IMG/VR virus record: IMGVR_UViG_3300042691_005779
Length of the DNA: 64,000 bases
Strand: one strand, 5' to 3'
From: a virus
Taxonomy: Duplodnaviria > Heunggongvirae > Uroviricota > Caudoviricetes
The position numbers and the translations under genes were made by a program. Under the pieces are notes generated by a model. It saw nothing but the letters and a program-made list of their open reading frames with translations, did not search any database and was not told where the DNA came from. This document shows positions 26,664-51,579 of the stretch, piece after piece (the first letter of the stretch is position 1; each line of letters opens with the position of its first letter).

Positions 26664-29600
26664 TTAAATACAATCTGTACAATTTGCTGTTCCAGATAAC
26701 TCACATCCTGGTGGTGGTGGAGTAGTAGTTGTTGTTGTGGTTGTACTAGTAGATGTACTAGTAGTAGTTGTTGTAGTTGTTGGTACAGGACAGTTAACAA
26801 AGTTTCCTCCACTAGCATTAAGATTAAAATATACTATTGTATATGCACTTATTGATGGAATTATGAAAGGATTTGATTTGCCACAAAGAGATGTAAAATC
26901 TCCACTAGATGCACCTGTTCCATATTGAATATCATTACCAGATGTATCAGTTATAGCAAGATACACTGTAACTCCTCCATTAAATATTGTACCAGCAAAA
27001 TTATCATAAAGTGGATAATCACTAATTGGGAATGTACTTGTTATCCATAGTGTCCAAGTTGCACCAAAGTCTGTACTATACCATAACTGTATTAATTGTC
27101 CAGTATTAGAAAATTCTGATATTCTCCAATCAACATTGTAGAAAACACTTGATGTTGTAGTGGTAGTTGTGGTTGGTGTAGCAGTGGTTGTGGTAGTTGT
27201 AGTGCTTGTACTACTAGATGTTGTAGTTGTAGTAGTGATTCCACAATCTATACACTCTGCTGTACCAGACAAGTTACAATATAAAATTGTTGTGGTAGTA
27301 GTTGTAGTGGTTGGAGAAGGAATCTCTGTAACTGCCACTGCTGTGATATCACAACCTTCATTTAATCCAGAATAGAAGAAGTTATTTTCTCCTATATAGA
27401 AGTTAGGAATGTATGTATGGAAACTTACCCAACTCTTAGTGTTTAGGTTAAATGAAGCAGTCCATGATTTGTTACAGAAGTATTCTAAGTCTGTTACATT
27501 TATAAACCTCTTCACTGATGTATTACCAGCAGTTGGTTGGTTTACATAAAACTCTTTAGCCACTTCATCATAGAATATTTCTTTTCCTGGTTGAGGAATA
27601 TAGTCTAGTTTAGTGATGATGATTCTTTCAAACTTGCTGTCAAATACACCATGTAATCCAATACCCTTGAAGTGATTATCTGTATCAATATTAGGAAAAT
27701 ACCTTAATATTTCAAATGATAAATGGTCTGTAAAGAATCTATTTAACCCAGAACCAAAGCCTGATATATCTGTTGCTTGGGTGCCTTGGATTAAGAATAT
27801 CTGTCCTCTCTTGGCATCTACAGTAACTTGACCTTGTGGTATTCTAAGTAACATCTTGTTCTGACATCCTACATATCCAAGGTCTGTTTCTGCAAAGTCA
27901 ATTGGAGGTGTATTGCCAAATAAATCACCACCTCCTAAATATGCAGCCTGAGGATTGCTTGTGTCAATAGTTAATAAGTTATTGTATAACAATGTCTTAT
28001 TCTCAAATCTAGCTAAGGTTGCTCTGTTCTGTATACCATCTAGAGATACTAAGTTACCATAGTTTTGAGGGAAGTCAAAGAAGTTCACTGGACGATATAT
28101 CAACCAGCTATTTATTCTGTTATCAGAATAGCTTTCTTGTCTATCAGAGTATATTGCTCTGAATGGAAAATGGGTGTAGCATAATTGCTGTACCCAATCT
28201 GCAGGCAAATGAGAGAAGAAGTTCTCTACGTTTTGCTTAGTGAATGTTGTATTGTAATAGTAAGTGTTATCAAATGCAATAGGCACTCTACTTTCTTGGA
28301 ACCATTGGTCAGGAATACCTGAGCTCACATGTGGGTAGAAGTCACCCTCCAAGTTGTTGAATGCTTGACGTAAGTCTACATTGATAGAACTCTCTACATA
28401 GTAATAAGGAATACCATATGCAAACAAATACATTTTGCCACCATATGTGTAGTTCAAAGAACCAGCCACCACTGTTCCTGGAGGAGGTGTTGTAGATGTA
28501 GTTGTTGTACTAGTTGATGTTTGTACAATATTATCATTAGGACAATCAAAATAATGTGCTTTGGTAGATATGATGTTCTTCATCAATGTACCACCCACAT
28601 AGTAGTCTGATAGGATAGATCTAGCTGAGTGCCAGTATTGTGGGTAAGCCACATTACCAATCTCATCATAGTAAATGTCACTGTCATCAGGAGCATTCAC
28701 TCTATTATCAATAAAGAATGGAAGTTTAGTTTTGAATCCAAACTTACCAATGAATGTATCACCACCAAAGATAACCTCAGGATCATTTGCAGGGAGAGCA
28801 TTAAATATTCTTTGGAATCCTGTATCAATTGTTTGATATGAATATATCTGTCCCCACTGTCCATTATTGATTGTCTTGATTGAACCATAATATGAAACAA
28901 CCTTTATATCTTCTTGAGCCTCAGGACTAGCACAGTTATCTACTTGTGAAATTGTAAATCTTGAAGTATCACTAATTTGACTTACACCTGCTACAACAAG
29001 ATTTGGTGTTTTGTTAGGATATGGTAAAGCTGGTACAGCTCCCACTCCAGTTCTTGTTTCAATACTCTTGGTATATACTGATGATTCTCTGTTCCAGTTG
29101 TTGATGTCATAGTTATCTCCCACAGATTGAACACCTGGGAAAATGTACTGTGACTTATCAAGTTGTCTTTGCTTAACTCCTTGATCATTAGGAATATCTA
29201 CACTATAGTCATAGCTAGATCTAGAATTAAAAGAATATGCAAAGTTTTGTCTACTGATACCATTTATATAGATCTGTAGATATGTTTGATATGCTGTGAA
29301 GAATGCTGAAGCATTAAATCCTCCTAGGTCAGCTATTGCTTTACTAGAGTTCAAAGCACTGATTTGTGTTTGCTCAGTGAGAAGTTTGTACATAGCATGC
29401 TTCTCCACTTTAACAAAGTGGGCCCTACCAGCACCAAACAATACACTCTCTAGCTTAAGAACATTACCTAATGTAGGTTGTCCAAAAGATGTTTCAGGTG
29501 AGTTAAACACCTGTCTGTATGGTGATTCATTATTATTAAACCCATCTAGCTTTTGAGGATAGCAGGCAAGGTTTTCATTAGTGTTAGCAGCAACAATAGT

Positions 29601-31910
29601 AAATCTAGGACTTCCACTTATACGTACAGGAACAATTGTTGAGTTTATTGTTACTGGATTACCATAGTAAACTGTAATGTTTTGAGTGGCTTGTGTAACT
29701 GGATCTATGTATCTAAAAGTAGCGTATGCTAAAATAGCACTGGTCATTGTGATTGTAAATGCTGTATTTGTAACATTTACAAATGTAGCAGACCCACTAT
29801 TTAAAACAGGAAGTGTAATAGAACATATCTCAGTTGTAGCAGTAGTGAAACTTTGTGTAGTCACCTCTCCTGTAAAACAATCTGTATATTGTAAAGTACC
29901 AGCAGCTGATACTGTCATCTTATACGTATCACATTGAGAGTTGTAAGCGTTGTTTCTCTCAAGTAAGAATGGATCTTCATTAAGATCATTATATGGATAG
30001 TTAGGATAGTAGTAGTATGTAGCATTAGGGTCACTAGGATCTTCTCTAGTGTATTTACCTACGTTTCTAAGAATACCCTTAGCAATGATGGATTTGTTTG
30101 TACTTCTATTACCTCTTACTATTTTGAATCCAACAATAGAGGCTTTCTCTTCAGCTGTTAAATTAGATGCTTGGATGAGAAATGCTATTTGTTGTACGTC
30201 TACCTTTACACCAATTGGATACACAGCACTAGCATTTTGCATCACTGGTTGTATCTGTCCACCAGAATATATAATAGGTGCACTTTCAAAGTGAGGACTT
30301 ACAAGAACATCAGGAAACTTGTGATGTCTAATAGGTTGACCAGCAAGGTCTCCCCATATATCTACATTGCATGGATAGGTATCAGTTGATTCCCAATAAG
30401 CAAAGTCTCCAGATTGATATGGATAAGCCTCTCCTATTTTACCAGCATTTGTGGTAGGGACAGGATAAGTAGCAGTTACGCTAGCTGTATTGTATATTCT
30501 CCAATAAGGTTCAGGAGCACCATCTCCTACATAGTCTGGGTTAGATGTTGTCACATCTGCATATGCTAATTCATTTGCATTCTTAGCTCTACCAGGAATA
30601 TGGAAACCATCTGTTTGTTTACCATTGTCTAGTAAAAAGACTATCTCAAATGGATACACTTCATCTCTTAAATAACCTCTAAGATTAGTAGTGTAAAACC
30701 CATCAGCATATGTATTGTTAGCTGGTAACTTATATGTCTCCCACTGAAGTTGAATCTTATTAGCTATTTGCTGATAGTTGATTCTGTCAATAGAAGTTAA
30801 GTTATCCCACACAATAACATCCTGTACGTTTGTAACGTCTTGAGCAATATCATAGTAAGCGAACTTCTCAAGTACATCGTTAAGACTCAAAGGGATTTGA
30901 GTTATGTTCTGACCTGTATAAGTAATAGATGTAGACTTCTCTTGAATGTTATACGTTCCCACTAATTCTACAGTGGTTCCACTGTTAATGGTTTTGATAA
31001 CAGCCAAGTTAAAGTATTGGAAGTATCCTGTAACATCTAAGTTACTGACATTCAACACAATAGACTTACCTACATTGTAATCAAAGTTAGGTGTTGTTAT
31101 CTCTGTGTTTGCAATAGATGTAGGATTGGTAATTGAGTAGTATGATGTATATGCATCTCCTGATGCATTAGCATATTGAATAGCAAACTGATAAGTACCA
31201 GCTTTTAAATCTCCTCCTACAACAATGTCAACAACATCTAGACTAGGGATTTGAAAGTTAGGTTGTACTTTTAATTTATTACAATCTAAGGTTGCTTCGA
31301 TGATTGGATCACAAGTTTCATTACCTACATAAGTTGTGATGTAAGGAACTTGTTCAATGTTAATGTATCTTCTTGGATTTAATCCATCTGTCCAATAAAC
31401 CTCTGTTGTACAGTTAGTAATTTTATGTACAACCTTTTTAATTGGATAGTTTATATCAAAGTTTAAACAAGGAGAGTTAGCACAAACTGTTAGTTCTGTA
31501 TTAGGAATAGGAGTACAAAGCGTGTTGTATACACAGTCATTGTTATCCATATATCCTATCTCACTTCCTCCTGTTTCAGGATTAGTTAAGAAGAATATGT
31601 GTTTGTTTTTCTCTTGGATGAAGTGTGTACCAATAAGTTGATAACCTTCAGGAAAATTTAAACAGAACACGTTAGCTGGTTCATTCTGATAGTTTACAGA
31701 ATTAGAGTCAAAGTTTTCTAATGCTGCATTCAGGGCATAGGAAAGTTTCCCCTTCTGTACTTGATTTACAGAAGAGTCCATGTCTAGCCCAACTCTACCA
31801 AGATTGAATTCTTGTCTTATGTTAGATGTTCCTTGATTATCTGTTCCAGCCTCTGCCATATCTTGAGCTTCTATTTGGTAATTCATATTGTCCAAAGCGT
31901 TGTAAGTCAT
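26664..31910 (-). CDS. Giant tail fiber / receptor-binding protein (1748 aa) with poly-Thr linkers and a duplicated C-terminal Cys motif
   Basis: Poly-Thr/Ser linkers. The motif C(N/E)LSGTA(E/N)C(I/T)DC occurs twice (nt about 27250 and at the C-terminus about 26670). The 5-prime end overlaps ORF 31837..32823 by 74 nt, so the true start may be the Met at about 31781. Confidence 0.5.
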   Translation of the reverse strand: MTYNALDNMNYQIEAQDMAEAGTDNQGTSNIRQEFNLGRVGLDMDSSVNQVQKGKLSYALNAALENFDSNSVNYQNEPANVFCLNFPEGYQLIGTHFIQEKNKHIFFLTNPETGGSEIGYMDNNDCVYNTLCTPIPNTELTVCANSPCLNFDINYPIKKVVHKITNCTTEVYWTDGLNPRRYINIEQVPYITTYVGNETCDPIIEATLDCNKLKVQPNFQIPSLDVVDIVVGGDLKAGTYQFAIQYANASGDAYTSYYSITNPTSIANTEITTPNFDYNVGKSIVLNVSNLDVTGYFQYFNLAVIKTINSGTTVELVGTYNIQEKSTSITYTGQNITQIPLSLNDVLEKFAYYDIAQDVTNVQDVIVWDNLTSIDRINYQQIANKIQLQWETYKLPANNTYADGFYTTNLRGYLRDEVYPFEIVFLLDNGKQTDGFHIPGRAKNANELAYADVTTSNPDYVGDGAPEPYWRIYNTASVTATYPVPTTNAGKIGEAYPYQSGDFAYWESTDTYPCNVDIWGDLAGQPIRHHKFPDVLVSPHFESAPIIYSGGQIQPVMQNASAVYPIGVKVDVQQIAFLIQASNLTAEEKASIVGFKIVRGNRSTNKSIIAKGILRNVGKYTREDPSDPNATYYYYPNYPYNDLNEDPFLLERNNAYNSQCDTYKMTVSAAGTLQYTDCFTGEVTTQSFTTATTEICSITLPVLNSGSATFVNVTNTAFTITMTSAILAYATFRYIDPVTQATQNITVYYGNPVTINSTIVPVRISGSPRFTIVAANTNENLACYPQKLDGFNNNESPYRQVFNSPETSFGQPTLGNVLKLESVLFGAGRAHFVKVEKHAMYKLLTEQTQISALNSSKAIADLGGFNASAFFTAYQTYLQIYINGISRQNFAYSFNSRSSYDYSVDIPNDQGVKQRQLDKSQYIFPGVQSVGDNYDINNWNRESSVYTKSIETRTGVGAVPALPYPNKTPNLVVAGVSQISDTSRFTISQVDNCASPEAQEDIKVVSYYGSIKTINNGQWGQIYSYQTIDTGFQRIFNALPANDPEVIFGGDTFIGKFGFKTKLPFFIDNRVNAPDDSDIYYDEIGNVAYPQYWHSARSILSDYYVGGTLMKNIISTKAHYFDCPNDNIVQTSTSTTTTSTTPPPGTVVAGSLNYTYGGKMYLFAYGIPYYYVESSINVDLRQAFNNLEGDFYPHVSSGIPDQWFQESRVPIAFDNTYYYNTTFTKQNVENFFSHLPADWVQQLCYTHFPFRAIYSDRQESYSDNRINSWLIYRPVNFFDFPQNYGNLVSLDGIQNRATLARFENKTLLYNNLLTIDTSNPQAAYLGGGDLFGNTPPIDFAETDLGYVGCQNKMLLRIPQGQVTVDAKRGQIFLIQGTQATDISGFGSGLNRFFTDHLSFEILRYFPNIDTDNHFKGIGLHGVFDSKFERIIITKLDYIPQPGKEIFYDEVAKEFYVNQPTAGNTSVKRFINVTDLEYFCNKSWTASFNLNTKSWVSFHTYIPNFYIGENNFFYSGLNEGCDITAVAVTEIPSPTTTTTTTTILYCNLSGTAECIDCGITTTTTTSSSTSTTTTTTTATPTTTTTTTSSVFYNVDWRISEFSNTGQLIQLWYSTDFGATWTLWITSTFPISDYPLYDNFAGTIFNGGVTVYLAITDTSGNDIQYGTGASSGDFTSLCGKSNPFIIPSISAYTIVYFNLNASGGNFVNCPVPTTTTTTTSTSTSTTTTTTTTPPPPGCELSGTANCTDCI
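26700..26795. repeat. Poly-Thr/Ser-coding (ACN)n low-complexity tract; similar tracts at 27150-27320, 28480-28520, 35697-35800 and 38480-38530
   Basis: Runs of GGT/AGT/TGT triplets on plus (ACN on the coding strand) that encode the T-rich linkers of fiber proteins. Confidence 0.7.
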
Positions 31911-32823
31911 TTCTTACTCTTCTTTGTTTAGTCCATGCATCTTGTTTCTTAATCTCAATCATTGCCATTATAAAAGCCTCATCATGTAATGCTTTATAAT
32001 AGATTAGCTTTTGTTGTATCTGTTGGAATGTTTCATCAGTTAACTGATTAGACAATGTTTCAAATACTTTATATTTAATATACGCTTCAACAAACTCTCT
32101 GATACGATAGTTGTCTGGAATCAATTGATTACCAACACAATCATACTCTGTAGCATAGAATATCAAATGCACCACCCCATTTCTAAAGTTGGTGACAAAC
32201 TTATTGTCTCTAATATCAAAGCTATCATAACTAGCAGATCCTGGAGTGAACTCTCTAATAGGAGGAGCAGTTTGATAAAACTCCCAAGCATCTGTATAAG
32301 TTACATCACAGTTTTGTCTTGCAGAAATATTACCTGGTTTAAGTAAGTATTCATGCCTGAACGCTCTAGTTCCTTGTTGATTAGTTTTGTATACAGCTGG
32401 TATAATTTGAGGTAGACAACTTCCATCACATTGAGGATTGGTACAAGCGTTGTCATGTTGACAATCTACACAAGGAGTACCACCCACTGTTACAGGAGTT
32501 ACCTGTATAGTGGTTTCAGATAATGCTTGAGAGTAGAATGAATTGGCTGTTTGATAAGGGTATCCTTCTGCTGCTGTACACATCCAAGCTTCTCTCACAG
32601 CATAAAAGTTATCTGGGAGTCTAGCTTCAAAGTCTTCTACATATAACACCTCTTCACTAATAACATACGTTGCCCTACCTAGTTTCATAAGACACTTATC
32701 TAAGTAGGTTGGGAACATTAGATCATCTACTGCTCCTGTATCAAAATAAGACTTTAACTCTTCCTTGACAGTTGAATAAACTGGATCAGGAGAAACAAAG
32801 TTATACTTGTAATAATATGACAT
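31837..32823 (-). CDS. Structural (tail/baseplate?) protein, 328 aa, Cys-rich
   Basis: ORF in the structural block; CVDCQHDNACTNPQCDGSC cysteine cluster. Confidence 0.45.
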   Translation of the reverse strand: MSYYYKYNFVSPDPVYSTVKEELKSYFDTGAVDDLMFPTYLDKCLMKLGRATYVISEEVLYVEDFEARLPDNFYAVREAWMCTAAEGYPYQTANSFYSQALSETTIQVTPVTVGGTPCVDCQHDNACTNPQCDGSCLPQIIPAVYKTNQQGTRAFRHEYLLKPGNISARQNCDVTYTDAWEFYQTAPPIREFTPGSASYDSFDIRDNKFVTNFRNGVVHLIFYATEYDCVGNQLIPDNYRIREFVEAYIKYKVFETLSNQLTDETFQQIQQKLIYYKALHDEAFIMAMIEIKKQDAWTKQRRVRNDLQRFGQYELPNRSSRYGRGWNR

Positions 32824-32829
32824 GTTATT

Positions 32830-33306
32830 TTATTTTTTCCATTCACAGTAGATATTCTGATACTTACTGTCAATGTTTATGTAATGGGATAGTAATCTAG
32901 ACGTTGCACGAGAGGGCTTGAAATACCACAGGTCTATGTTTCTGATTCTTGTAGATTCTTTGAACCACATCCAGCCAAAGAAAAATCCTTCTGTATGATA
33001 GTTGAAATTGTATATGCGTTTACCTTTCTCCTTGGTCTTTTTCCAATCTATGGGTAAGTTAACCACCTCTTTACCATCTACAGTTTTTAGCTTTCTTCTC
33101 TTCTTTTTATTAATGGAGAACTCTCCAAAGCCAAAAGGAAGTCTTGCTTTCTCTCCTGTTTCTAGAATGTAGTTTTTAAAATAGTCATTATATAGATATA
33201 TAATGTTTTTCCACTGGTCAAATGTAACCTTTACAGTGGGGTTTTTATTGCAAAAATTATTATAGTTTTCTTTACTAGAACTTCTCCAATCTATTTTTGT
33301 ACGCAT
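32830..33306 (-). CDS. Basic hypothetical protein, 158 aa
   Basis: ORF; Lys/Arg-rich (KKKRRKLK). Confidence 0.4.
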   Translation of the reverse strand: MRTKIDWRSSSKENYNNFCNKNPTVKVTFDQWKNIIYLYNDYFKNYILETGEKARLPFGFGEFSINKKKRRKLKTVDGKEVVNLPIDWKKTKEKGKRIYNFNYHTEGFFFGWMWFKESTRIRNIDLWYFKPSRATSRLLSHYINIDSKYQNIYCEWKK

Positions 33307-34037
33307 TAGTTAGTGTTGGTTGTATTTGGTGCTTGACCATCAACCCCATCTGATGTTTGATCTGTCTTCAATCTGAAATAAGTTGATAACAGTTTTTGAG
33401 ATGTTAGTTCTAGCACCTGCTTTTCTAAATATCCAGGGCAGCCATATTCCTTATCTAAAGGATTCTTGCAGAGCTCATCTGTAGAATAGTCTACATTGCC
33501 ACAGCCACACTCAGGAAACATTATTTCATTAGGTACATCTTCTTCAAAGAAAGCAGAAATTCTTGCTGCCTTTAGCAATGGATTACTGATGTATAAGTAA
33601 CCACCATTGGCTATCCAATAGTATTGTTCATTCTTAATGATAGGAAGTTTCAATAAATTTAAGTATCTGTTGATAGTAATCTCTTTGAATCTTTTTCCTT
33701 GTCCACCCATAGCGTTGATAGAATATACACCCTGGATAACATATTGATAGTTTCCTTCTGTAATGCGAGGAAGTTTGTATCTGCTTCTTGCTACGTTACA
33801 TGGGTCTACATATTCACAACATTCAGAAATAGGAACTTCTATCATCTCAAGGCATGGGATGGTAGTAAACAAAGTATCAGTAGCCCAAAGCTTTCTGAGA
33901 TTTGTCTCACGTTTAACTAATAACTGTGTGTTGTTCTTAATCTCAGAAGCAACAACCCTATCAGTGATAAGGTTATCTGTGGACAGCAATTTGTGCATTC
34001 CACGAACGTCTGAAACTAATTTCCTTAATGTTGCCAT
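33306..34037 (-). CDS. Hypothetical Cys-rich protein, 243 aa
   Basis: ORF; start overlaps the stop of the upstream gene; CC..C and CGCG motifs. Confidence 0.45.
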   Translation of the reverse strand: MATLRKLVSDVRGMHKLLSTDNLITDRVVASEIKNNTQLLVKRETNLRKLWATDTLFTTIPCLEMIEVPISECCEYVDPCNVARSRYKLPRITEGNYQYVIQGVYSINAMGGQGKRFKEITINRYLNLLKLPIIKNEQYYWIANGGYLYISNPLLKAARISAFFEEDVPNEIMFPECGCGNVDYSTDELCKNPLDKEYGCPGYLEKQVLELTSQKLLSTYFRLKTDQTSDGVDGQAPNTTNTN

Positions 34038-35287
34038 TATAAATATTGTTTGAATATATTTGTCATTCCTGAGCCTTGTTCTATTAAGAAGGCAGTCACT
34101 TCAGCCTTAGACATCACGTGACCATTCTTATCATCCCAAAGACTCTTAGCACTAGAGAATGCTGGAATTTGGTAAAATTTAATACCATTGAAATCTTGAC
34201 TAACTTCATGGTGTTTATCTCCTGTGAATATGTAGAAGTTGTCATGGAAAGACCACGCTTCTCTAAATTCTATTGGAAATAATGCTGCAAGCTTAGCTGG
34301 CTTTAAAGCATCTCCATGATTAAACATCAATGCTGAACCACCATAGCTTACATACTTTCTATACTTAGGACTCACATCAAATGTAAGTCTGTTTGTATTT
34401 CTAAAATAGGTTTGTAACCAAGTAACTAAATGCCATCCTACATACTCATCATGATTACCTGCTACATAGATTACATTTACATTATCAGCGTATTGTAATA
34501 ACATTGTAATCATTAACACCTCATGGTCACATATAAAGCTAAATGAATCTTGATATGTATGAGTGTTTGTTTGAGGAGTGCCTTTAGTTGTAGTTCCTGT
34601 AAACTCACTGTTGAATTCATCAGAACCAATAATATATGTAATTTGATCTAAGTTATTTGAAAGCTGTGCTTGATTAGCAATAAGCTCCACCTTGTACATG
34701 ATAGAAGCTAGTCTATCAGCAATGTTGTTATTGCCATCAATATCATATTTGTTCAAATGAGAGTCTTGCTTATTGATAACCAACATAGCAGGAAACTTAT
34801 GTTCAGAGAACTTAGGACTCATAACTTCCTGACTAACAGGTTGATATGATGCTAAAAAGTCTACAAAACTATCTTGAAAAACTTGTTCTGTAGACTTCTT
34901 ACCTAACCATGCTTTGACTTGCCAATGAGGACTGTTTCCATTCCCCCAGAAGTTCTGTACATATTTAGTTATTTCCCATTTATCTGTGTCTATGTGACAC
35001 TTCTCAATTAGTTCATCTAAGCTCTTAACCTCTTCGCTAAAATTAGCTACCACCTCTCCTGTACCCTTTATAAGATCTTCTGTAAACTTAACCACTCTAT
35101 CTTCTAAGTCTGCTATGTAGTTTCCTATCTCTGCTTCTTCTTGTGCGTTTTCTTCTTTTCTGATGTCTGCTAACAGACCATCTATCTCTGCCTCTGTAAT
35201 TCCTAGCTTATCAGCATAGTATTTTTTTGATTTCTTCCAATGCAGCATCTGTTGAAGTTGCTCCAAAAGACTTTGGTTTTCAGGCAT
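34037..35287 (-). CDS. Calcineurin-like metallophosphoesterase domain protein (416 aa)
   Basis: Ordered phosphoesterase motifs: QDSH (DxH), IIGSDEF (GD-like), VAGNHDEY (GNHD/E, nt 34442-34477), FNHGD, GDKHHE (GHxH-like). About 130-aa N-terminal extension. Confidence 0.6.
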   Translation of the reverse strand: MPENQSLLEQLQQMLHWKKSKKYYADKLGITEAEIDGLLADIRKEENAQEEAEIGNYIADLEDRVVKFTEDLIKGTGEVVANFSEEVKSLDELIEKCHIDTDKWEITKYVQNFWGNGNSPHWQVKAWLGKKSTEQVFQDSFVDFLASYQPVSQEVMSPKFSEHKFPAMLVINKQDSHLNKYDIDGNNNIADRLASIMYKVELIANQAQLSNNLDQITYIIGSDEFNSEFTGTTTKGTPQTNTHTYQDSFSFICDHEVLMITMLLQYADNVNVIYVAGNHDEYVGWHLVTWLQTYFRNTNRLTFDVSPKYRKYVSYGGSALMFNHGDALKPAKLAALFPIEFREAWSFHDNFYIFTGDKHHEVSQDFNGIKFYQIPAFSSAKSLWDDKNGHVMSKAEVTAFLIEQGSGMTNIFKQYL

Positions 35288-35394
35288 ATGTAGGTAAGTT
35301 TAGTTAAAATTAGCGTAAAGATAGGAACTATTTTTGATATACCCAAAAATTTACTAACTAATTTAATTATATAGAATAACTTTTTTTGTTAGAG

Positions 35395-35431
35395 TTAAAA
35401 CAAAAACCCCCAGCCTAGAAAGGCCAGGGGA
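35395..35431 (-). terminator. Rho-independent terminator on the minus strand (CCCCCTGGCC-loop-GGCTGGGGG followed by UUUUUGUUUU)
   Basis: GC-rich stem 35407-35431 with an adjacent A-run 35395-35406 on plus (U-run on the minus transcript). It lies about 40 nt downstream of the stop of ORF 35472..36011. Confidence 0.7.
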
Positions 35432-35471
35432 TACTCTGTAAACCAACAAACAGAGTTTTTGATATTTTATA

Positions 35472-36011
35472 TTAAGGACATGCTGTTGTAGCAATAACAA
35501 ATCCACCATTGTCTACTTGATAACTATCTGCACCAGGGCCTTGAGAATACCATTGATTACCACCAGTTACAGGAGTTACACCACACTCACCTTCTAACCA
35601 TAATCTTGTAGGAGTTAAAGAGTTGTCAGTATCAAATAATACTAAACTTCCTAAATGAGCACATGCTGTAGCATTTGCAGGATATAAGAATATCTGTTGA
35701 CATCCTGGAGTTGGAGTAGTTGTAGTTGTTGTAGTTGGAGGAACTGTAGTTGTAGTTGTTGTTGTACTACTTGTAGTTGTTGTTGTAGTGGTATTAGCAA
35801 TAAGCATATCGATAGAGTTGGTACAGGTTCCTGTAGAAGTCACTCTAATGATTGTAGCATCATTGGGAACACCTGCTAAGCTGTACCCTGCTAATAATGC
35901 TGATTTAGATACCCCTGTAGCTAATGGAGTAGTGTACCCATCTGAATCTGAATAGATGTTGAAAGGACCTGTATCTGCCCCAGCTAGGGTTAATGTTATT
36001 AAGACTGTCAT
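35472..36011 (-). CDS. Fiber-associated protein with an N-terminal TGPFNI domain and a poly-Thr linker (179 aa)
   Basis: MTVLITLTLAGADTGPFNIYSDSDG...GYSLAGVPNDATIIRVTSTGTC is paralogous to the N-terminus of ORF 25783..26652. A poly-Thr stretch of about 25 residues follows. Confidence 0.5.
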   Translation of the reverse strand: MTVLITLTLAGADTGPFNIYSDSDGYTTPLATGVSKSALLAGYSLAGVPNDATIIRVTSTGTCTNSIDMLIANTTTTTTTSSTTTTTTTVPPTTTTTTTPTPGCQQIFLYPANATACAHLGSLVLFDTDNSLTPTRLWLEGECGVTPVTGGNQWYSQGPGADSYQVDNGGFVIATTACP

Positions 36012-36034
36012 ATTTAAATTGATTTTTTAGTTGG

Positions 36035-36298
36035 TTATGGACACTCACTCAATAGAGCACAGAGAGCAGTTTTTAACTGTACACTGTTTCCAATGGCAGT
36101 TAAAATTGCTTGGGCCAAGAGTGTTGGGTCTAGTTCAGAGTCTATCTTTTGGAGAGCCACTGTTACGTTATCATTTGTTTCTATACCTGTGTTAGGAAGA
36201 TTAGCTCCTGTATACTTTACATTGTTTGTACCAATGCAATATCCAGGACCTGCAGTTTGTCCTTCTGGGGTATAGCATGGATTATAAATATTTACCAT
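36035..36298 (-). CDS. Small protein (87 aa) consisting only of the fiber N-terminal YTG..GI.TND..ALQKID module; possible adaptor or a truncated paralog
   Basis: YCIGTNNVKYTGANLPNTGIETNDNVTVALQKIDSELDP aligns with the N-termini of ORFs 1..903 and 36309..37442. Confidence 0.4.
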   Translation of the reverse strand: MVNIYNPCYTPEGQTAGPGYCIGTNNVKYTGANLPNTGIETNDNVTVALQKIDSELDPTLLAQAILTAIGNSVQLKTALCALLSECP

Positions 36299-40399: not shown

Positions 40400-41361
40400 A
40401 ATGAAGCTATTTTTTTACCTTTTAATTTACCTTCTAAAGTCAATAATTGATCTTGGTTGTCATCATCTGCTAAGAACTTAACTAATTCATCTTCATCCTT
40501 AGCTATTTCAAACTCACCTTCGTAAACTTTACCATTAGGTCTCACTCTATAAATAGAATGTGCAATGGCTTGTTTAACTAAATCTTTAATATGGAGTAAG
40601 TTTTCCTTCATGTCTGCAAATCTGTTAAATACCTCAATTGGACTTAACCCTTGATATTTGCCATTCTTGAATTCTGTTTGTTTTAATAGGTTATCCACCT
40701 GATTGTATACAGCTTCTTCTTTAGAATCATCTGATACTGGGAGACCAAGTAGACGAGCTACTTTCTTCTTCTTTTCAGGAGTCATATCATCAAACTTGAT
40801 GATTGCTTTATTAATAAGTTGTTTCTTCTTGAAAATCACCTTATTCTCAATCTCATCATCAGCAACATAATATTGGATGTCTGCTGGATATTCACCACGC
40901 TCCCAAGCTTGATATGAGCTTGCAATTGTTGGATGAACTCTTAACCATGCGAACGCTAGTTCTTGTAATGGTACACTTAAGTCAAAGAAATTATCACCAT
41001 CTGATAACTTAACAGGTTGCACGTGCAGAGAGTCATCAACAGAAGTTGATAAGCCATAATTCCAGAACTGAGCACGAGGACTCAAGTCAACATTCAAAGC
41101 ATCTTCAAGCTTTTGTTTTAACTCAGTTACTCTTTCAACCTCCATCTCTCTTTCAAGAGGATCAGAGATTCTTCTGATGTAAGCAGCTTTAGGATCTAAT
41201 CCTGTTCTGTACTGACCATCTAACTCTTTGTAAGGATACTTAAATACACCTGTACCAGGGATTCTTGTATAACCTTTCATAGCAAGTCCACCTTGCATCG
41301 TTTGCAATTGTGAGTTGTTGTACTCTTTTTTAATAGTAGAGATTTTTCCTATCTTACCCAT
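40396..41361 (-). CDS. Structural hypothetical protein, 321 aa
   Basis: ORF downstream of the capsid gene. Confidence 0.45.
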   Translation of the reverse strand: MGKIGKISTIKKEYNNSQLQTMQGGLAMKGYTRIPGTGVFKYPYKELDGQYRTGLDPKAAYIRRISDPLEREMEVERVTELKQKLEDALNVDLSPRAQFWNYGLSTSVDDSLHVQPVKLSDGDNFFDLSVPLQELAFAWLRVHPTIASSYQAWERGEYPADIQYYVADDEIENKVIFKKKQLINKAIIKFDDMTPEKKKKVARLLGLPVSDDSKEEAVYNQVDNLLKQTEFKNGKYQGLSPIEVFNRFADMKENLLHIKDLVKQAIAHSIYRVRPNGKVYEGEFEIAKDEDELVKFLADDDNQDQLLTLEGKLKGKKIASL

Positions 41362-41458
41362 ATGTAGTTGTTTTTTTGTTTGGTTTATTTGCAGATGGTT
41401 CCCATCGAAGGGAATGCAGTTAACACTTAGTTAACCCATCCATCTGTGTGAGAAGACT

Positions 41459-41516: not shown

Positions 41517-43070
41517 TTAGAATTGTGGTATTTCTTCGATTAACACAGTACGTGATAAATCTTCAATGAATACATCACAACGATCTTTCATCCAGATCTC
41601 ATAACCAGGGAATTTGTTCGCAGAACTCATACCTTGAGACTTAGCAAAGCCTAAGTGGTGACGAGTACCATCGATATAACCCCAAGTCATAGAAGGTGCA
41701 CCTTTCATACGTACTTCACGAATGTTGTTCACCATAGAACCATCGCTCATAGGAGATACGTCAAATACCATGAATACAGGTGTAGACTTCTTGTTCTGTC
41801 CAAATTCTAGGTTTGTTTGAGGAAGGTCTAATTCTTTTAAGTGAATTAGTTCAACACGACCAGTTTCACGTGTAACCATTGCATCGAATGCAAAGTTGTA
41901 AGTGATGTGTTGACCTTCTCCTTGTAAATATCTGTTACCAGAATCAGCCATGAAAGTAAGACCAGAATTTAAAGCATCTGTTTTTAAAGCTTGTTGGAAT
42001 ACGTCAAAGCCAGCTTCATTAGTGTACATTTTAACACGTCTGTCTTTAACATCCACACGTCTGTAGAATAAGTCACCAAATACAGCACGAATCAAGTTAG
42101 CTGTGAACTCACCACGATTGTATTGTACTAAGTTACCATTGTTACGCATTCTGTGATATACACCAGCAGAAGTACGCTTTAATTCTTGCTTAGAACCATT
42201 AGTCTTCACAGTACCAGGACGAGCCCAGATCATACGCTTAACTTTTAATTCTAACATAGACTTACGCATCCAGAACTCAATAAATGGTTCCCATTTAACA
42301 TCATTACGAGTTAAAGGTAATTGGTTACGTCTTTGAGGAGCATATACTAAGATATCCAATGGATTACCTTTGCTATCTCTCATCATTTTGTCATCAGCCC
42401 ACTCTGTAATTTTGTGCTCATAACCATATGCAGAACCTAAAGATTCAAACATAGTAATTTGCTCACCTAAACGAGGAAGACCTAATAAGTCTTGGTCAAA
42501 TTCACCAATAGCAGCGTCAACTAGTTCTAGTTCAATACCAACTTGTAAGAAAGTTGAACTTACAAAATCTACAGTTGGGTTATCACTTACTAAAGTGAAA
42601 GTGTATAAGAAACCAACGTTCCAAGGAACTGGATCTTTTACAACGTAGAAACGTGGACCATATTGACGAGTACCTACAGAAATGATTGCGTTCTTAGAGA
42701 ACTCATTAGTGTCAATCACTAATTGGAATTCTTGACCATCAATACCAGGCTTAGATAATTCCTGAGTTGAAGTTGGAACGTCAATGATTTTAGGGAACTT
42801 GTAAGGAACTTGTACTTGCCACTTCCAAGCATCACTGTTGTTGTCAATGTAGTAAGGAGTAGACTTGTTGATCATGTCTAGGAAATCATTACTGTACAAA
42901 GAACTCTGAGTATACAAACTGATGATTTTTTTATCATAATCAGCAGGCTCAGTTGAGTGAAAGCTTTCCAAGTGGTTCGCATCAGTCAATTTACCTACTG
43001 CACGCTTGTCCATAGAAGCGATCCTAGCATAGGTAAAACCAGTTAAACCTGGGATTGTTTGAATTGCCAT
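41517..43070 (-). CDS. Major capsid protein candidate (517 aa)
   Basis: Size and position: immediately downstream of the acidic scaffold-like gene, in a portal-scaffold-capsid order. Followed by a GC hairpin. No motif-level proof. Confidence 0.5.
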   Translation of the reverse strand: MAIQTIPGLTGFTYARIASMDKRAVGKLTDANHLESFHSTEPADYDKKIISLYTQSSLYSNDFLDMINKSTPYYIDNNSDAWKWQVQVPYKFPKIIDVPTSTQELSKPGIDGQEFQLVIDTNEFSKNAIISVGTRQYGPRFYVVKDPVPWNVGFLYTFTLVSDNPTVDFVSSTFLQVGIELELVDAAIGEFDQDLLGLPRLGEQITMFESLGSAYGYEHKITEWADDKMMRDSKGNPLDILVYAPQRRNQLPLTRNDVKWEPFIEFWMRKSMLELKVKRMIWARPGTVKTNGSKQELKRTSAGVYHRMRNNGNLVQYNRGEFTANLIRAVFGDLFYRRVDVKDRRVKMYTNEAGFDVFQQALKTDALNSGLTFMADSGNRYLQGEGQHITYNFAFDAMVTRETGRVELIHLKELDLPQTNLEFGQNKKSTPVFMVFDVSPMSDGSMVNNIREVRMKGAPSMTWGYIDGTRHHLGFAKSQGMSSANKFPGYEIWMKDRCDVFIEDLSRTVLIEEIPQF

Positions 43071-43105: not shown

Positions 43106-44380
43106 TTATTGAAACCAAGAAGTTTGTTTAGTTGCTGGTTTAGATTTCACTGAACTCTTCTGGGCTTGTCTGGCAACCTCACCAAATAATTCATTTGACT
43201 TTTTGGTAATACCTGTCTTTTGAATAGTAGATAATGTAGGATCTTTCTCCATTATCTTCATGATCAACGCAAGCTTTACTTTTGTTGCATGATTCTCAGG
43301 ACGTTTAAGCTCCAGAATAGTCTTATCAAAGTCTGTGAGAGTCTCACCAGAACTTGTTTTGTACTTGTCTGTTACTAGGAAATCTTGTAGTTCACCAGCT
43401 AGTTTTGGATTAATTGGTATGCCATCAAATTCTTTAGCTTTGAGCTTCTCCTGTAAAACTTGGTTTACATTCTGATAGTACTGCTGTTTGATAGCCTGTT
43501 GCTGTTGTAATTGAGATTCTCTTTGTTGCTCCATTTGTTGGAGCTTAGCAGCTTCTTTCTTTACTAATACTTTATGGTGCTTGGTAGCAACGTTCTCAAG
43601 GTCACCATAGTTTTTAAGTCTTTCAACTTCTGTGTCTACATCTTCTTTCTCAAAGCCTTGATCTGTAAGTGCTTGTCTAATAACAGCAATTTGATTATTC
43701 TCTTGGCTAAGGTCCATCTCTGTGAAAGATTGGATCTGATTGTAGGCACCAAAGTATTCTTTAGGATCTACACCTTTTACAAATATGGCATCGAATGCTT
43801 GTTGATAATCTTCTCCAAACTGACCAATGAAGTTGTTTACAATTTCAATAGCTCCTTTCTTCTTCTCTGCTTGGAACTTTTCCAAGAAAGCTTCTGGGGT
43901 TTCTATTGGTGCATCTTCTTCCTCATCATCATCTTTAGAGAAAACACCTAGTTTGAAAAGGTCTCTTGATAAAGCAGTGAATTGGTTTGCACCTTCTTCT
44001 TCACCTTCTTCATCACTATCTTCTTGATTATCAGCATCTTGTGCAACAGTCTTTTTAGCTGGTGCTGGTGCTGGTTCATCATCTTCCTCACCCTCTTCTT
44101 CATCTTCTCCATATAAGAAACTTTGAATATCCTTTACAGGATTCTCATCTTTCTTATCTTCTTCTGGAGCAGGCTCTGAAGCAGCTGGTTGTTTAGAAGT
44201 AGTTTTCTTAACTGGAGTGGGAGCAGGATCATCTTTAATGTCCTGAATATCATCAGGATTAGATGTTGCACTGTCAGGGCTCAATAAGTCATTTAATAAC
44301 TCTTGACTTCCCATTCCCATGTCCATAGTATCTTGAATACTAAAGTTACCCATTTGGGGCATATCTAGATTTTCAGCCAT
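43106..44380 (-). CDS. Scaffolding-like protein (424 aa): acidic D/E-rich N-terminal half, coiled-coil C-terminal half
   Basis: Composition (EDEEEGEEDDE, DSDEEGEEEG) and location directly upstream of the capsid gene. Confidence 0.45.
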   Translation of the reverse strand: MAENLDMPQMGNFSIQDTMDMGMGSQELLNDLLSPDSATSNPDDIQDIKDDPAPTPVKKTTSKQPAASEPAPEEDKKDENPVKDIQSFLYGEDEEEGEEDDEPAPAPAKKTVAQDADNQEDSDEEGEEEGANQFTALSRDLFKLGVFSKDDDEEEDAPIETPEAFLEKFQAEKKKGAIEIVNNFIGQFGEDYQQAFDAIFVKGVDPKEYFGAYNQIQSFTEMDLSQENNQIAVIRQALTDQGFEKEDVDTEVERLKNYGDLENVATKHHKVLVKKEAAKLQQMEQQRESQLQQQQAIKQQYYQNVNQVLQEKLKAKEFDGIPINPKLAGELQDFLVTDKYKTSSGETLTDFDKTILELKRPENHATKVKLALIMKIMEKDPTLSTIQKTGITKKSNELFGEVARQAQKSSVKSKPATKQTSWFQ

Positions 44381-44500
44381 ATGTAGTTGTATTTATTTGG
44401 TTTTCAAGGTGTAAAAGTATATTAAGTTAATGTAATAGCAAAGACACAAGGCTCTATATGGACTATTATTCAGTATAATATAGCATTAACTTTTTTTACT

Positions 44501-45031
44501 CTAATCTAATTTGTTAGTGAAATTGTCATTTATCAGCCTAAAGCTCCTTATTGGGGCAAGATCTGTAAGTGTAACTTGTTGAACCTCAACACCCCACTTC
44601 CTTGCTTCCACCCTAACTTTCTTACTAAGAGTGTTGTCAAGCTCTGTATCTGTACACTCTTCTAGGGTCATAGACATGATGACGTTTTTAATTATGCTTT
44701 GAGACATGTCTGACAGAGCATCTTGGGCATCATACACTTCTAGCAGAAATGTCTTGACATCTGCTATCTTATATTTAATAAGCCCCTTCACCACAATATT
44801 CTGTTTGTCTTTTGTATACAAAGATTGTGCATCTAAGCTAAGGGTTGTCACAACGACATGTTGATCTATCACCTCGTCAAAGAAGGGAAGTTTTAAATGT
44901 ATCCCTGGTTTGAGCACTGAATGAAATCTACCAAACCTAAGCAACACAGCCTCTTCATAATCTCTGATTATAATAAAAGGTATTATCTGGTACCACCAGT
45001 GTGATAAGATTTCAATCAGTTTATCAAACAT
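44501..45031 (-). CDS. SPFH / band-7 (stomatin-QmcA-like) domain protein with an N-terminal membrane anchor (176 aa)
   Basis: AVLLRFGRFHSVLKPGIHLKLPFFDEV ... VVKGLIKYKIADV ... ARKWGVEVQQVTLTDLAP matches the SPFH core pattern (RFG.F...L.PG....PF.D.V ... WGV.V....I.DL.P). Hydrophobic N-terminus IIPFIII. Confidence 0.6.
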   Translation of the reverse strand: MFDKLIEILSHWWYQIIPFIIIRDYEEAVLLRFGRFHSVLKPGIHLKLPFFDEVIDQHVVVTTLSLDAQSLYTKDKQNIVVKGLIKYKIADVKTFLLEVYDAQDALSDMSQSIIKNVIMSMTLEECTDTELDNTLSKKVRVEARKWGVEVQQVTLTDLAPIRSFRLINDNFTNKLD

Positions 45032-45033: not shown

Positions 45034-47616
45034 TTATTTAGTTTTCTTAGCTCTTCCTTTAGCATTCTCTTTGGCAATAGCTAGATCATTTGCTTGGTTC
45101 TCTCTGCTCACTTTAATCTTCTCTTTCTCTACGTTAAGCTTCTCCATTGCCAGCGTGTGTTTGTTTTGAATATCAGACAGCTTGGTTTGATAATCTCTCT
45201 GAGCTCTAGTTTGTTCTAAAGCTAACTTGCTGATTTCCAACACATCAGGAGTTCCTGATGCATCAATGTCTGACAATGGACCACCCTTAGACTCTGCTGC
45301 AATAAGTGCAATCTCTTTCTTATTGATTCTATCCATCTCAGCGTTGTAGTTGTCATTAGCAATCTTCTCTGCTTGTTGTTGCATTTGCAACTGTAATTGA
45401 GCTTGACCAAGTTGTTGCTGTTGTTCAAGTTCTTGTTGCTTCTGTTGTAATTGCTGATTTTGGATTTCCTCTTGTCTCTCTTTAAGTGTCTTAAATACCT
45501 TCTTCATTTGTCTGATTGAATTGGTGCTGTAAAGCTCAATTACATCATGTAATGATCCACCATTCTGAATAACAGCTTGAGACAATCCTCTAATCTCGTT
45601 GAATGCTTCTCTATCTTCAGGTCTGTTAGTTAAGTAAACTTTTAAATCTCTGAATCTAAGGTCTGTACCATTTACAGATACAAATGCAGATTCTCCCTCA
45701 TTAGTAATATAAGAGATGGTTGATTGTGGTTTCTTAGCTTCTACATACAAAGCTGCATCAATGATGGCTTGGTAAAGCTGACCCATAATATATTCATGTG
45801 CTACAAACAAAGGTTCTGTCTGAGCATAAGATTGTGTAATAGCTGCGTTGGTACCTGTAGCTGATTCACTAGCAGTTACAGATCCAAGTCTTTGTCTTGA
45901 CATACCTATAAGTTCCCAACATTCATTCTTTATCTGTTGTGCTAGAGTATATCTTGCTTGGATCTCCTGTGTACGTGTGAGGTCTAAACTGGTATATTGG
46001 TTGAAGCTAGAAGGACTCTTCAAGTTCTCTGGGCTGTCATCCACAAATACCACACCTCTGTTACGTGCTTCCATTTCCCATACATCAAGAGCATCTTGTG
46101 CATCTCCATCCTTAGGAATAGGAATGTGTCTGATAGACATTAACTGAACCTTACCCACCTCTTTCTCAAGGAGTTTATACAACTGGTTCATACAAACGTT
46201 GTATATAACTTGGAAAGGTTTCATCATGTCTACCAAGCTCTTAGCTTCTGTATTCTTCACTTCAAAGGTTTGGCCAATGATAGGACAGTAAGGTAATAAC
46301 TTGTATGGTTTGATATGATAGATGTCTGGTCCAATCTTGATACCTTGATACCATTGGTTAATCCAACCCCACTCTAGAGAAATCTCTGTAGGAATTGTCT
46401 TACTCTTATAGTTTTCATCAACAAGCATAGATTGCTCATTGCCCATTTCATCTGTGTAGATTAACTTACCAATCTTCTTCTTAGAGATCCAATAAGCTCT
46501 AACAACAACATACTTATAACCAAATGAGCTTACATTAGATGTAAGTCCCAAGAAGTCTTGAAGTCCATCATTGTTCTCTTTCATTTCAGACTCAATGATC
46601 ATTCTAGTTTGTAGAACAAGAGGGTCGTATGTATCATATTGAACAGAGTCAATACCTGGAATAGCGTTAGGATTACCAAGGTTTGATTCACGTACGTTGA
46701 TAAGACCATAGTCTTGTAAAGAACTACGTAAGTGATCTATTTCTTCTTTAGTCAGGTCAGGAATAGCTTCAATGATTTCAGATAGTTCCATAACTTGTAC
46801 AATACCAGCAGCATATGCTCCTTGTGCACGACCTGTAGGATCTGAAATCCACTTTCTATCTGGTGTAGTTAAGAACCAAGTGTTCTTAGGGTTAGCCACC
46901 TCAATGTTAAATCCAAGCTTTGAGTTGTCTTCATATATATGGAAGAACTCTCTAGCAGAGATTAGTAAGTCTCTGAATGAATCTTCTCCTTTCTCTTTTA
47001 AATTAAACTCAACCTTCTGAGATGTAAGAATGTGGTTTGCCCACTTCTCTGCTGTAGATGTGTAAGAATCTAATTCATCCTTCACCTCATCAAGAGTCAT
47101 CTGAGTTAGTTCCTCATCTTCAATCTCTTGACCTTCAGCCATAGCCTTTTGCTGTATCTTCATTTTAGCTTGACTGACAATGTAGTTATTTAACATTTCA
47201 GTTTTAAACTCTAGCTCTTCAGCTTTACTATCATCATCAAATGCTTTGACACGAAATGCGTCAGGTCTTTTGGAAATCTCTCCTACTAGTTCATTGATAG
47301 GAGTGGTCATTATAGAATAGTGTTTCACATAGGCAGGAAGTTCAAGATCTGCTGTGAGCACATCTGTAAAGCTTCTAACTTCTGGTTCAACATAAAAGTC
47401 TTCTCTTCTTAAAATACCTTTAACAAGGTCATAGTTCTTTACAAATGTATCTCTGCTCTTAACATACTCAGCATAAGCTTTGTTTGCAAAGTAGTCCATT
47501 GTGTTCTTCACCCAACTCTCATCCTGCTTCTCCTTATCAGTTTTAAACTGATCTGGAAATATGTTCAAATAGGCATACCTTATGGTAGCGTCTTTCGTAT
47601 ATCTTATAATTGCCAT
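45034..47616 (-). CDS. Portal protein candidate (860 aa)
   Basis: Large ORF immediately downstream of the terminase large subunit (TerL); C-terminal coiled-coil and Gln-rich tail; synteny only. Confidence 0.55.
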   Translation of the reverse strand: MAIIRYTKDATIRYAYLNIFPDQFKTDKEKQDESWVKNTMDYFANKAYAEYVKSRDTFVKNYDLVKGILRREDFYVEPEVRSFTDVLTADLELPAYVKHYSIMTTPINELVGEISKRPDAFRVKAFDDDSKAEELEFKTEMLNNYIVSQAKMKIQQKAMAEGQEIEDEELTQMTLDEVKDELDSYTSTAEKWANHILTSQKVEFNLKEKGEDSFRDLLISAREFFHIYEDNSKLGFNIEVANPKNTWFLTTPDRKWISDPTGRAQGAYAAGIVQVMELSEIIEAIPDLTKEEIDHLRSSLQDYGLINVRESNLGNPNAIPGIDSVQYDTYDPLVLQTRMIIESEMKENNDGLQDFLGLTSNVSSFGYKYVVVRAYWISKKKIGKLIYTDEMGNEQSMLVDENYKSKTIPTEISLEWGWINQWYQGIKIGPDIYHIKPYKLLPYCPIIGQTFEVKNTEAKSLVDMMKPFQVIYNVCMNQLYKLLEKEVGKVQLMSIRHIPIPKDGDAQDALDVWEMEARNRGVVFVDDSPENLKSPSSFNQYTSLDLTRTQEIQARYTLAQQIKNECWELIGMSRQRLGSVTASESATGTNAAITQSYAQTEPLFVAHEYIMGQLYQAIIDAALYVEAKKPQSTISYITNEGESAFVSVNGTDLRFRDLKVYLTNRPEDREAFNEIRGLSQAVIQNGGSLHDVIELYSTNSIRQMKKVFKTLKERQEEIQNQQLQQKQQELEQQQQLGQAQLQLQMQQQAEKIANDNYNAEMDRINKKEIALIAAESKGGPLSDIDASGTPDVLEISKLALEQTRAQRDYQTKLSDIQNKHTLAMEKLNVEKEKIKVSRENQANDLAIAKENAKGRAKKTK

Positions 47617-50515: not shown

Positions 50516-50804
50516 AGACTTCTTTTTTAAGTGCCTCCTCTTCTTCCCTGTCAGACATTACAGCCTTCCATTTTTCAAGAGGACACTGGCAAGATAAGCA
50601 TTTTGTTTTAGCAGCTAACGTACAGCCACAGTCTGTGCAATGTACGTCAGGTCTGATGGTTTTATGTTTTGTAGATATCAAAGCACAGTCTTCACATATG
50701 GCCATTCTTTCCTCACTAACTTCCTTGATGTACTTTCTCATCTCCTTAGCAGGGAAAAGATTGTTCTTCCATCCCTCATATATTTGGGAAAAGCTAATCT
50801 TCAT
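50505..50804 (-). CDS. Zn-finger protein, 99 aa (CxxC x3)
   Basis: CEDCALIS ... CTDCGC ... CLSCQC. Confidence 0.45.
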   Translation of the reverse strand: MKISFSQIYEGWKNNLFPAKEMRKYIKEVSEERMAICEDCALISTKHKTIRPDVHCTDCGCTLAAKTKCLSCQCPLEKWKAVMSDREEEEALKKEVYGK

Positions 50805-51514: not shown

Positions 51515-51579
51515 AAAGGTATGTATATCTTTACGATCTACAAATAACTATTTTAGTTATAAGGAAAGTTAATGCTATA

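Follow-up and report, generated by a model that had tools for sequence, protein, structure and literature searches.

The metallophosphoesterase gene and its active site

The 64-kb stretch of DNA analyzed here (the window; IMG/VR record IMGVR_UViG_3300042691_005779) is, by its gene content, part of an environmental crAss-like podophage, because it encodes a crassvirus major capsid protein (MCP), a portal, ring proteins, and a muzzle, in an order that matches crAss001. Its minus strand carries, at 34037-35287, an open reading frame (ORF) for a 416-aa protein, with an ATG start and a TAA stop. An interpretation made from the letters alone (the sequence-only reading) had proposed that this ORF encodes a calcineurin-like metallophosphoesterase (MPE) with its five motifs in order. 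The ORF is indeed a genuine MPE gene: the five motifs are present in the order claimed, and the active site is intact, the key residues being invariant.

All the motifs lie on the minus strand. Motif I is DSH (residues 175-177; 34757-34765), in which D175 and H177 are invariant. Motif II is GSD (residues 221-223; 34619-34627; D223 invariant), motif III is GNHDEY (residues 277-282; 34442-34459; N278 and H279 invariant), and motif IV is NHGD (residues 323-326; 34310-34321; H324 invariant). Motif V is a variant, GDKHHE (residues 356-361; 34205-34222; H359 invariant). Together they make up the signature of the calcineurin-like metallophosphoesterase superfamily. When 73 homologues with 23-57% identity were aligned, the invariant columns were D175, H177, D223, T233, N278, H279, K311, H324, and H359. 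Seven of these are canonical metal ligands and the catalytic histidine, while T233 and K311 are specific to the family. T233 is part of a family-specific loop, TTTKGTPQ (34571-34594, minus strand), in which G236 and T237 are nearly invariant; this loop may contact the substrate phosphate. The first histidine of motif V is replaced in most members by aspartate, which is still a metal ligand, and is kept in some. The family consensus is GDKH, and the canonical GHxH is found in a few members, for example in Leptolyngbya phage Lbo-JY46.

A full-length profile match places the protein, by sequence, in PHROG 704, "DNA repair exonuclease" (E=2.7e-44; residues 9-404 against profile positions 10-374 of 390). 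This family, filed under nucleotide metabolism, contains at least 3,786 clusters at 50% identity (exhaustive HMMER search, E<=1e-3), and the homologues from every genomic context described below match it over their full length. The gene is thus a member of a catalogued but unstudied family and not a new kind of system. No match of the window MPE to Pfam Metallophos (PF00149 / PF12850) was obtained at E<0.1; its relatives reach about 16-21.6 bits against a cut-off of 21.5. The subfamily is divergent, and the missed threshold reflects the sensitivity of the hidden Markov model, not the fold. An NCBIfam scan gave no informative match, a PADLOC scan gave no match, and a search of PDB sequences with the single protein returned nothing useful.

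Judged by its sequence, the MPE is an active enzyme, because the metal-ligand and catalytic positions are invariant in the 73 homologues. One homologue, P0211 (771 aa, PHROG 704), is interrupted directly behind the GNH of motif III by an intein of ~345 aa that contains a LAGLIDADG domain. Insertion sites of this kind are typical of essential catalytic motifs, and the site therefore also points to an active enzyme and an indispensable gene.

Predicted structure and relation to known enzymes

An AlphaFold2 model, computed with the family alignment as input, has a mean predicted local distance difference test score of 94.1. Residues 1-63 (35099-35287, minus strand) comprise a three-helix helix-turn-helix (HTH) of the sigma-70 region 4 / LuxR type and, after it, a long helix (32-60). 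The N-terminus is hydrophilic, not hydrophobic, and relatives match Sigma70_r4_2, GcrA, and HTH_7 below threshold. Next comes a beta-beta-alpha-beta-beta-alpha domain that is ferredoxin/ACT/RAM-like and conserved family-wide (residues 64-147; 34847-35098, minus strand), in which D100 and W114 are nearly invariant. The MPE catalytic domain (residues 165-416; 34040-34795, minus strand) has the four-layer alpha/beta sandwich of the superfamily, and no capping or other C-terminal domain follows it. The HTH is the variable part of the protein, and the conserved family core begins after it.

On this model the fold of the MPE is settled. The top structural match is the proofreading exonuclease DP1 of PolD, with a score of 14.4 over 221 aligned residues. 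It is followed by LpxH (12.8), MJ0936 (12.8), Mre11 (12.7 and 12.5), SbcD (12.4), and Rv0805 (11.3). The family profile gave weak, sub-significant matches in the PDB, among them Mre11/SbcD and "Nuclease MPE". The HTH, together with the nuclease-type structural neighbors, suggests DNA as the substrate.

The closest relatives by architecture are other PHROG 704 members. Lactobacillus phage Lrm1 gp50, Bacillus phage vB_BhaS-171 gp01, Synechococcus phage S-CBS2 gp003, and the Lbo-JY46 protein XAI97391 have the same three-part architecture, invariant residues, GDKH variant, and TTxGTPQ loop. The archaeal PolD DP1, a 3'-5' proofreading exonuclease, is only 9% identical to the MPE; it has an oligonucleotide-binding (OB) fold and works with DP2, whereas the domain in front of the MPE core gives ferredoxin/ACT-like rather than OB matches. 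No DP2-like gene was detected in the window, whose DNA polymerase (57911-60037) matches the PHROG DNA polymerase family phrog_1252; the MPE is not a PolD DP1.

Mre11 and SbcD have a capping domain and a Rad50/SbcC partner. The window MPE has neither the capping domain nor a region for binding Rad50/SbcC and, unlike these enzymes, has an N-terminal HTH, an ACT-like domain, and GDKH at motif V. In the window ORFs that the Pfam or PHROGs scans covered, no Rad50, SbcC, or AAA_23 protein was found, the window being 64 kb of a genome of ~105-118 kb. The sequence-only reading had noted the missing partner and argued from it against a recombination nuclease of the Mre11 type. The absence stands for the scanned ORFs, but it is uninformative with respect to nuclease activity, because partnerless MPE nucleases are documented and the top structural match, DP1, works with DP2. 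The documented examples are an MPE of Pseudomonas putida (PMC7826289) and gp48 of mycobacteriophage A10ZJ24, a phage MPE able to act as a DNA nuclease during infection (PMC12287305). Both are stand-alone binuclear MPEs that cut DNA, as is proposed below for the window MPE. They differ from it in belonging to other subfamilies, in being shorter, and in having no HTH/ACT-like N-terminus; gp48 is, in addition, an early gene. The MPE showed no significant sequence match to either protein, and no mycobacteriophage was among the tblastn matches.

Gene order in crAss-like phages

The MPE stop codon and the start codon of the next gene share one base (TAATG). This second cistron (33306-34037, minus strand) encodes Ring protein 2 (R2) of the tail barrel (Pfam CrAss_Ring_2, E=7.2e-16). 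On the same strand follow the genes for an HU/IHF-like protein homologous to crAss001 gp42 (32830-33306; BLASTP E=2e-8 to gp42; phrog_12177), Ring protein 1 (R1; 31837-32823; Pfam CrAss_Ring_1, E=3e-8), and the muzzle protein (26664-31910; Pfam crAss_MUZ, E=2.4e-30). The order R2, HU/IHF-like, R1, muzzle agrees with gp40, gp42, gp43, and gp44 of crAss001. As listed, the muzzle ORF and the end of the R1 gene share 74 nt (31837-31910, minus strand); the true muzzle start is probably an ATG further downstream.

Ten crAss-like contexts were examined: the window, Lbo-JY46, the P0124 contig, and the loci L088, L090, L091/92, L099, L100, L105, and L106. Because the family-alignment search of viral contigs returned close relatives (>=80% identity) only, this diversity comes from individual look-ups. 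An intergenic region, the MPE gene, no or one small ORF, and Ring_2 follow one another in all ten, and where the sequence continues the IHF-like, Ring_1, and muzzle genes come next. Across these contexts the identity of the MPE to that of the window falls from 57% to 25%. Among 25 close relatives, the MPE gene, the intergenic region, and the R2, IHF-like, and R1 genes aligned in every one. The two genes upstream of the MPE gene behave otherwise: an 87-aa gene aligns in one of the 25 and a 179-aa gene in seven. They make up a hypervariable cassette (35472-36298, minus strand), directly upstream of the terminator described below; the 179-aa gene has a poly-Thr linker. Both are probably receptor-binding modules. 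The sequence-only reading had placed the MPE gene inside a tail-fiber module. It is near fiber genes, as stated, but its actual position is a boundary, at the edge of the hypervariable fiber cassette and the head of the conserved R2, IHF-like, R1, muzzle operon.

Contrary to what had been supposed, a nuclease among structural genes is not unusual in these phages; a PD-(D/E)XK nuclease within the block of structural genes (PDDEXK_a) has already been named as a hallmark of the crAss-like phages (Yutin 2021, PMC7886860). In the Flavobacterium phage FpV4, a RecB-like PD-(D/E)XK exonuclease, gp24 (phrog_298, E=1.2e-38), is encoded immediately upstream of R2, exactly where Lbo-JY46 and the window have the MPE. 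PDDEXK_a and FpV4 gp24 are thus likewise nucleases in a morphogenesis block, whereas their fold is PD-(D/E)XK and not that of the MPE. BLASTP between the MPE and gp24 gave E=0.11, that is, no similarity, and the two are analogous in position only. A tblastn search with the MPE found no phage of F. psychrophilum, the group that includes FpV4, among its matches, and a search with FpV4 gp24 found no Leptolyngbya phage among its own. Nor did tblastn with the MPE find any Bacteroides or gut crAss-like phage at E<=1e-5. Metallophosphatase is listed among the annotated genes of gut members, where it is found beside replication genes (Yutin 2021, PMC7886860).

Terminator, hairpin, and leader

The 184-nt intergenic region upstream of the MPE gene is conserved. 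It contains, on the minus strand, an intrinsic terminator with a 10-bp GC-rich stem (7 GC pairs) and a 4-nt loop, the stem spanning 35407-35430, followed by TTTTTGTTTT to 35397. This hairpin and T-run is the sole strong terminator-like site on the minus strand within 31-42 kb. It is conserved in relatives, with compensatory changes at 7 of the 16 pairs of the tandem-hairpin alignment. A GC-rich hairpin, a U-tract, and compensatory changes identify it as a rho-independent terminator. The strong terminator just upstream of the MPE gene that the sequence-only reading had reported is therefore real. The separate regulation deduced from it is not supported, since the terminator ends the fiber cassette and the unit that runs on into R2, IHF-like, R1, and muzzle has the MPE gene as its first cistron. 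Co-expression of the MPE with the barrel genes is indicated by the 1-nt overlap with R2 and by the order that recurs in all ten contexts.

A second element, hairpin 1 (35434-35456, minus strand), lies immediately 5' of the terminator. It has a covarying stem and an invariant loop core, TTRTTGGTTT, a motif that occurs once in the window. The stem covaries in lineages whose proteins are just 25-57% identical. Hairpin 1 is present somewhere in each of 80 close relatives. Its distance upstream of the MPE start is 123-175 nt in the window (~165 nt), L090, L091/92, L099, L100, L101, and L105, and it is absent from L088, L106, Lbo-JY46, and FpV4. An Rfam search with the upstream element matched no family. 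Hairpin 1 may be a terminator helper, a protein-binding site, or a recombination boundary. Recognition of hairpin 1 by the HTH of the MPE was considered and rejected: L105 has the hairpin with a different type of HTH, L106, L088, and Lbo-JY46 lack it, and the presence of the hairpin tracks phage lineage and not the type of HTH.

Between the terminator and the gene is a conserved AT-rich leader (35288-35396, minus strand), with AAAGTTATTCTATAT at 35369-35383 and CTACAT as its last bases before the ATG. The leader would act as the operon's promoter. Three copies of the motif AAAGTTA-N2-3-CTATAT are present in the window against 0.06 expected, and all of them are intergenic. One copy is that at 35369-35383 (minus strand), upstream of the MPE operon; another, at 44478-44493 (minus strand), is upstream of the scaffold-like/MCP unit; and the third, at 51565-51580 (plus strand), faces the replication genes. 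The motif may serve as a promoter element of the phage. The start context CTACAT-ATG is shared by three genes that follow long intergenic regions, the MPE gene and two others that are likewise the first of their operons (35285-35293, 41359-41367, and 44378-44386, minus strand). The sequence CTACATATG is present in 8 copies in the window against 1.0 expected.

Allele mosaicism

The MPE does not share the history of its neighbors. Between L090 and the window, R2 is 79.5% identical and the IHF-like protein 65%, and the MPE just 29% (L090 3017-4252 against 34037-35287); nucleotide similarity between the two begins exactly at the MPE/R2 junction. L100 shows the reverse pattern, with the MPE 43% and R2 25% identical to those of the window. 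Within the protein, the HTH and the catalytic module also have different histories. Compared with the window MPE, residues 1-66 of homologue P0163 show 45.5% identity and its core 25%, and for P0123 the values are 32% and 57%. By these comparisons, the slot is fixed and the allele exchangeable. Co-divergence of the MPE with its neighbors, which was tried as an argument for a core gene, failed, the MPE being mosaic relative to R2, IHF-like, and R1.

Other genes of the window

The window has a G+C content of ~0.36. Its close relatives are plentiful in metagenomes, on contigs of 105-118 kb. The minus strand encodes, in addition to the tail-barrel genes, the crassvirus MCP (41517-43070; Pfam), a P22-like portal (45034-47616; Pfam), and the large terminase, TerL (47616-49655; PHROGs). 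DNA polymerase and a DnaB-like helicase are encoded on the plus strand. An SPFH/Band-7 domain protein (44501-45031, minus strand; Pfam E=6.8e-27), unusual for a phage head module, lies between the portal gene and a scaffold-like gene. Genes for HU/IHF-like DNA-binding proteins are also found within the structural block, and a second protein of the HU/IHF type is encoded in the morphogenesis region upstream of TerL (50794-51147, minus strand; Bac_DNA_binding E=6.9e-8).

A giant ORF of 4,055 aa (5327-17494, minus strand) has no significant Pfam match, and neither do its neighbors of 876, 903, 947, and 1,424 aa. By position, the giant ORF corresponds to the virion RNA-polymerase or cargo proteins of crassviruses.

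A search of 185,579 species genomes gave a single match to the MPE, a protein 79% identical encoded on a 59-kb contig (L101; JBBAJX010000014.1) in a metagenome-assembled genome of Sediminibacterium sp. The contig is probably that of a phage binned together with its host, and is a weak clue to freshwater Chitinophagaceae, Bacteroidota, as hosts.

The family in other phages

Outside the crAss-like phages the family gene has other neighbors. In siphophages and myophages it is found in replication modules or before HNH/terminase genes, whereas in environmental crAss-like phages it heads the tail-barrel operon. In the more distant metagenomic members L093, L102, and L103 it adjoins the genes for DnaB, primase, single-stranded DNA-binding protein, or methylase. 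In vB_BhaS-171, Lrm1, Rctr41k, and Perkons it is located just upstream of HNH, terS, or terL, at the end of the DNA-metabolism region, and in Lalka27b beside nucleotide-metabolism genes near TerL. In none of the non-crAss contexts examined is it part of a tail or fiber module. These neighbors point to DNA metabolism.

In the Psychrobacillus phage Perkons (L098, 125839-134732; 137 kb), which is unrelated to the window, an HU gene lies on one side of the MPE homologue and the terminase on the other, so that this phage too groups HU, MPE, and packaging genes. The Perkons homologue also adjoins a gene annotated as an RNA-dependent RNA polymerase, which is possibly YonO-like or crAss-like.

Proposed function

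The reading favored here, with moderate confidence, is that of a metal-dependent DNA nuclease without a partner, which would be produced along with the late tail-barrel genes and would work intracellularly on phage DNA. In this mechanism the N-terminal HTH of the sigma-r4/LuxR type would bind DNA. The long helix and the ACT/ferredoxin-like domain would probably serve in oligomerization or positioning, and the C-terminal MPE domain would use two metal ions to cleave the phosphodiester backbone. The predicted metal ligands are D175, H177, D223, N278, H324, D357, and H359, and the predicted catalytic histidine is H279. The gene would be transcribed as the first cistron of an operon for the tail barrel, muzzle, and cargo; because it heads this operon, the enzyme would be produced late, with the parts of the virion. 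Its role may be the processing of phage DNA before or during packaging, in particular the trimming or debranching of replication and recombination intermediates. It would have the same job slot as the PD-(D/E)XK nuclease within the structural block of other crAss-like phages.

Several points weigh against this proposal. Biochemical data for any PHROG 704 member were not found in the literature, which also yielded no functional or proteomic data on Lbo-JY46 or FpV4 and nothing relevant on crAss phages and phosphoesterases. The late timing is deduced solely from gene position, and one copy of the promoter-like motif faces replication-side genes. Gut crassviruses such as crAss001 have no MPE in the slot upstream of R2 and encode the tail hub proteins THA/THB there instead. 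A PD-(D/E)XK nuclease of gut crAss phages in that same slot was looked for and not found in cr127_1, where the homologue is upstream of TerL, not R2; the same-slot argument thus rests on FpV4-type phages. Finally, the mosaicism of the MPE suits an arms-race or selfish gene as well as a housekeeping nuclease. It weakens the simple picture of a core housekeeping gene and keeps the arms-race and selfish readings alive. The crAss001 arrangement also raised the idea that the MPE is an analogue of the tail hub proteins. This was rejected: neither sequence nor fold supports it, and the active site shows strict conservation.

Alternatively, though this is unlikely, the MPE could be a virion cargo nuclease that is packaged in the capsid or tail barrel and ejected with the genome, degrading host DNA or blunting defenses early in infection. 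The operon also encodes the barrel, the muzzle, and the giant cargo-like proteins downstream. Storage and ejection of cargo proteins are features of crassviruses (PMC10172136), a mycobacteriophage has an MPE nuclease that silences defense genes by degrading host DNA (PMC12287305), and the allele mosaicism is compatible with an arms race. The known crAss001 cargo genes, however, are downstream of the muzzle gene and not upstream of R2. In the RefSeq record of FpV4, R2 and its muzzle-like neighbors are labeled "virion structural protein" but the nuclease in the slot is not. The presence of the family in replication modules or before the terminase in non-crAss phages, and the classification of PHROG 704 under nucleotide metabolism, also argue against a virion component.

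It is still less probable that the gene is a semi-selfish cassette of HTH and nuclease that has no core role, spreads through recombination much like a homing endonuclease, and persists at a permissive boundary between modules. Such a cassette would account for the sharp allele replacement at the MPE/R2 junction and the mosaic domains, for the location next to the hypervariable cassette, and for the scatter of the family over very different phage types and genome positions; crAss001 has the homing endonucleases gp37 and gp41 in the same neighborhood. It would not readily explain the presence of the MPE throughout the 25 close relatives, its retention in one slot across all 10 crAss-like lineages at identities as low as 25%, or the strict conservation of its active site. 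The MPE gene is, moreover, itself the target of an intein at a catalytic motif, as is typical of indispensable genes, and we know of no homing endonuclease of the MPE type.

The sequence-only reading had raised a cyclic-nucleotide phosphodiesterase that depletes defense signals. We consider it very unlikely that the MPE is an enzyme of this kind, destroying the cyclic-nucleotide or oligonucleotide messengers of CBASS, Pycsar, or type III CRISPR. An N-terminal DNA-binding HTH has no obvious use in a small-molecule enzyme, and expression with the late structural genes would come too late for signal depletion unless the protein were packaged. The family neighbors are replication and packaging genes, and PADLOC gave no match.

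Only a slight chance is given to a regulator-phosphatase, in which the sigma-r4/GcrA-like HTH would target promoters or RNA polymerase and the MPE would dephosphorylate a protein or nucleotide as a switch of late expression. The N-terminus does resemble sigma region 4, LuxR, and GcrA. In Lrm1-type phages the MPE gene follows that of a DUF1492-domain protein, which we take to be an ArpU-like late regulator, and the N-terminal half of the Lrm1 homologue also matches phrog_323, "transcriptional regulator, D5-like". It is the HTH that varies, however, and the conserved family core begins only behind it. A virion-borne enzyme that cleaves cell-surface phosphodiesters (teichoic-acid-like or capsule linkages), also raised earlier and suggested solely by the position near fiber genes, can be all but dismissed, since the protein has an HTH at its hydrophilic N-terminus and no fiber, anchor, or beta-helix domain, a conserved terminator separates it from the fiber cassette, it is conserved while that cassette varies, and outside the crAss-like phages its family is found near replication or HNH/terminase genes and in no tail module.

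Implications

If the MPE is an intracellular DNA nuclease, the very large, uncharacterized PHROG 704 family, whose present label is a generic one, would be placed among the DNA-processing nucleases and linked to the unexplained structural-block nuclease of crAss-like phages. A more far-reaching version, which is quite speculative, is that a clade of environmental crAss-like phages recruited an HTH-guided MPE nuclease as a dedicated enzyme for genome maturation (terminus generation, packaging initiation, or debranching) and coupled its production to tail-barrel expression. This enzyme and the PD-(D/E)XK structural-block nuclease of other crassviruses would then be functionally interchangeable, and the hairpin with the TTRTTGGTTT loop might belong to the same system. 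If true, this would be the first function for the enigmatic nuclease of the crass structural block. The analysis also corrects a tempting mis-annotation of the MPE as a tail-associated depolymerase or an anti-CBASS enzyme, and a cultivable carrier, Leptolyngbya phage Lbo-JY46, provides a testable case.

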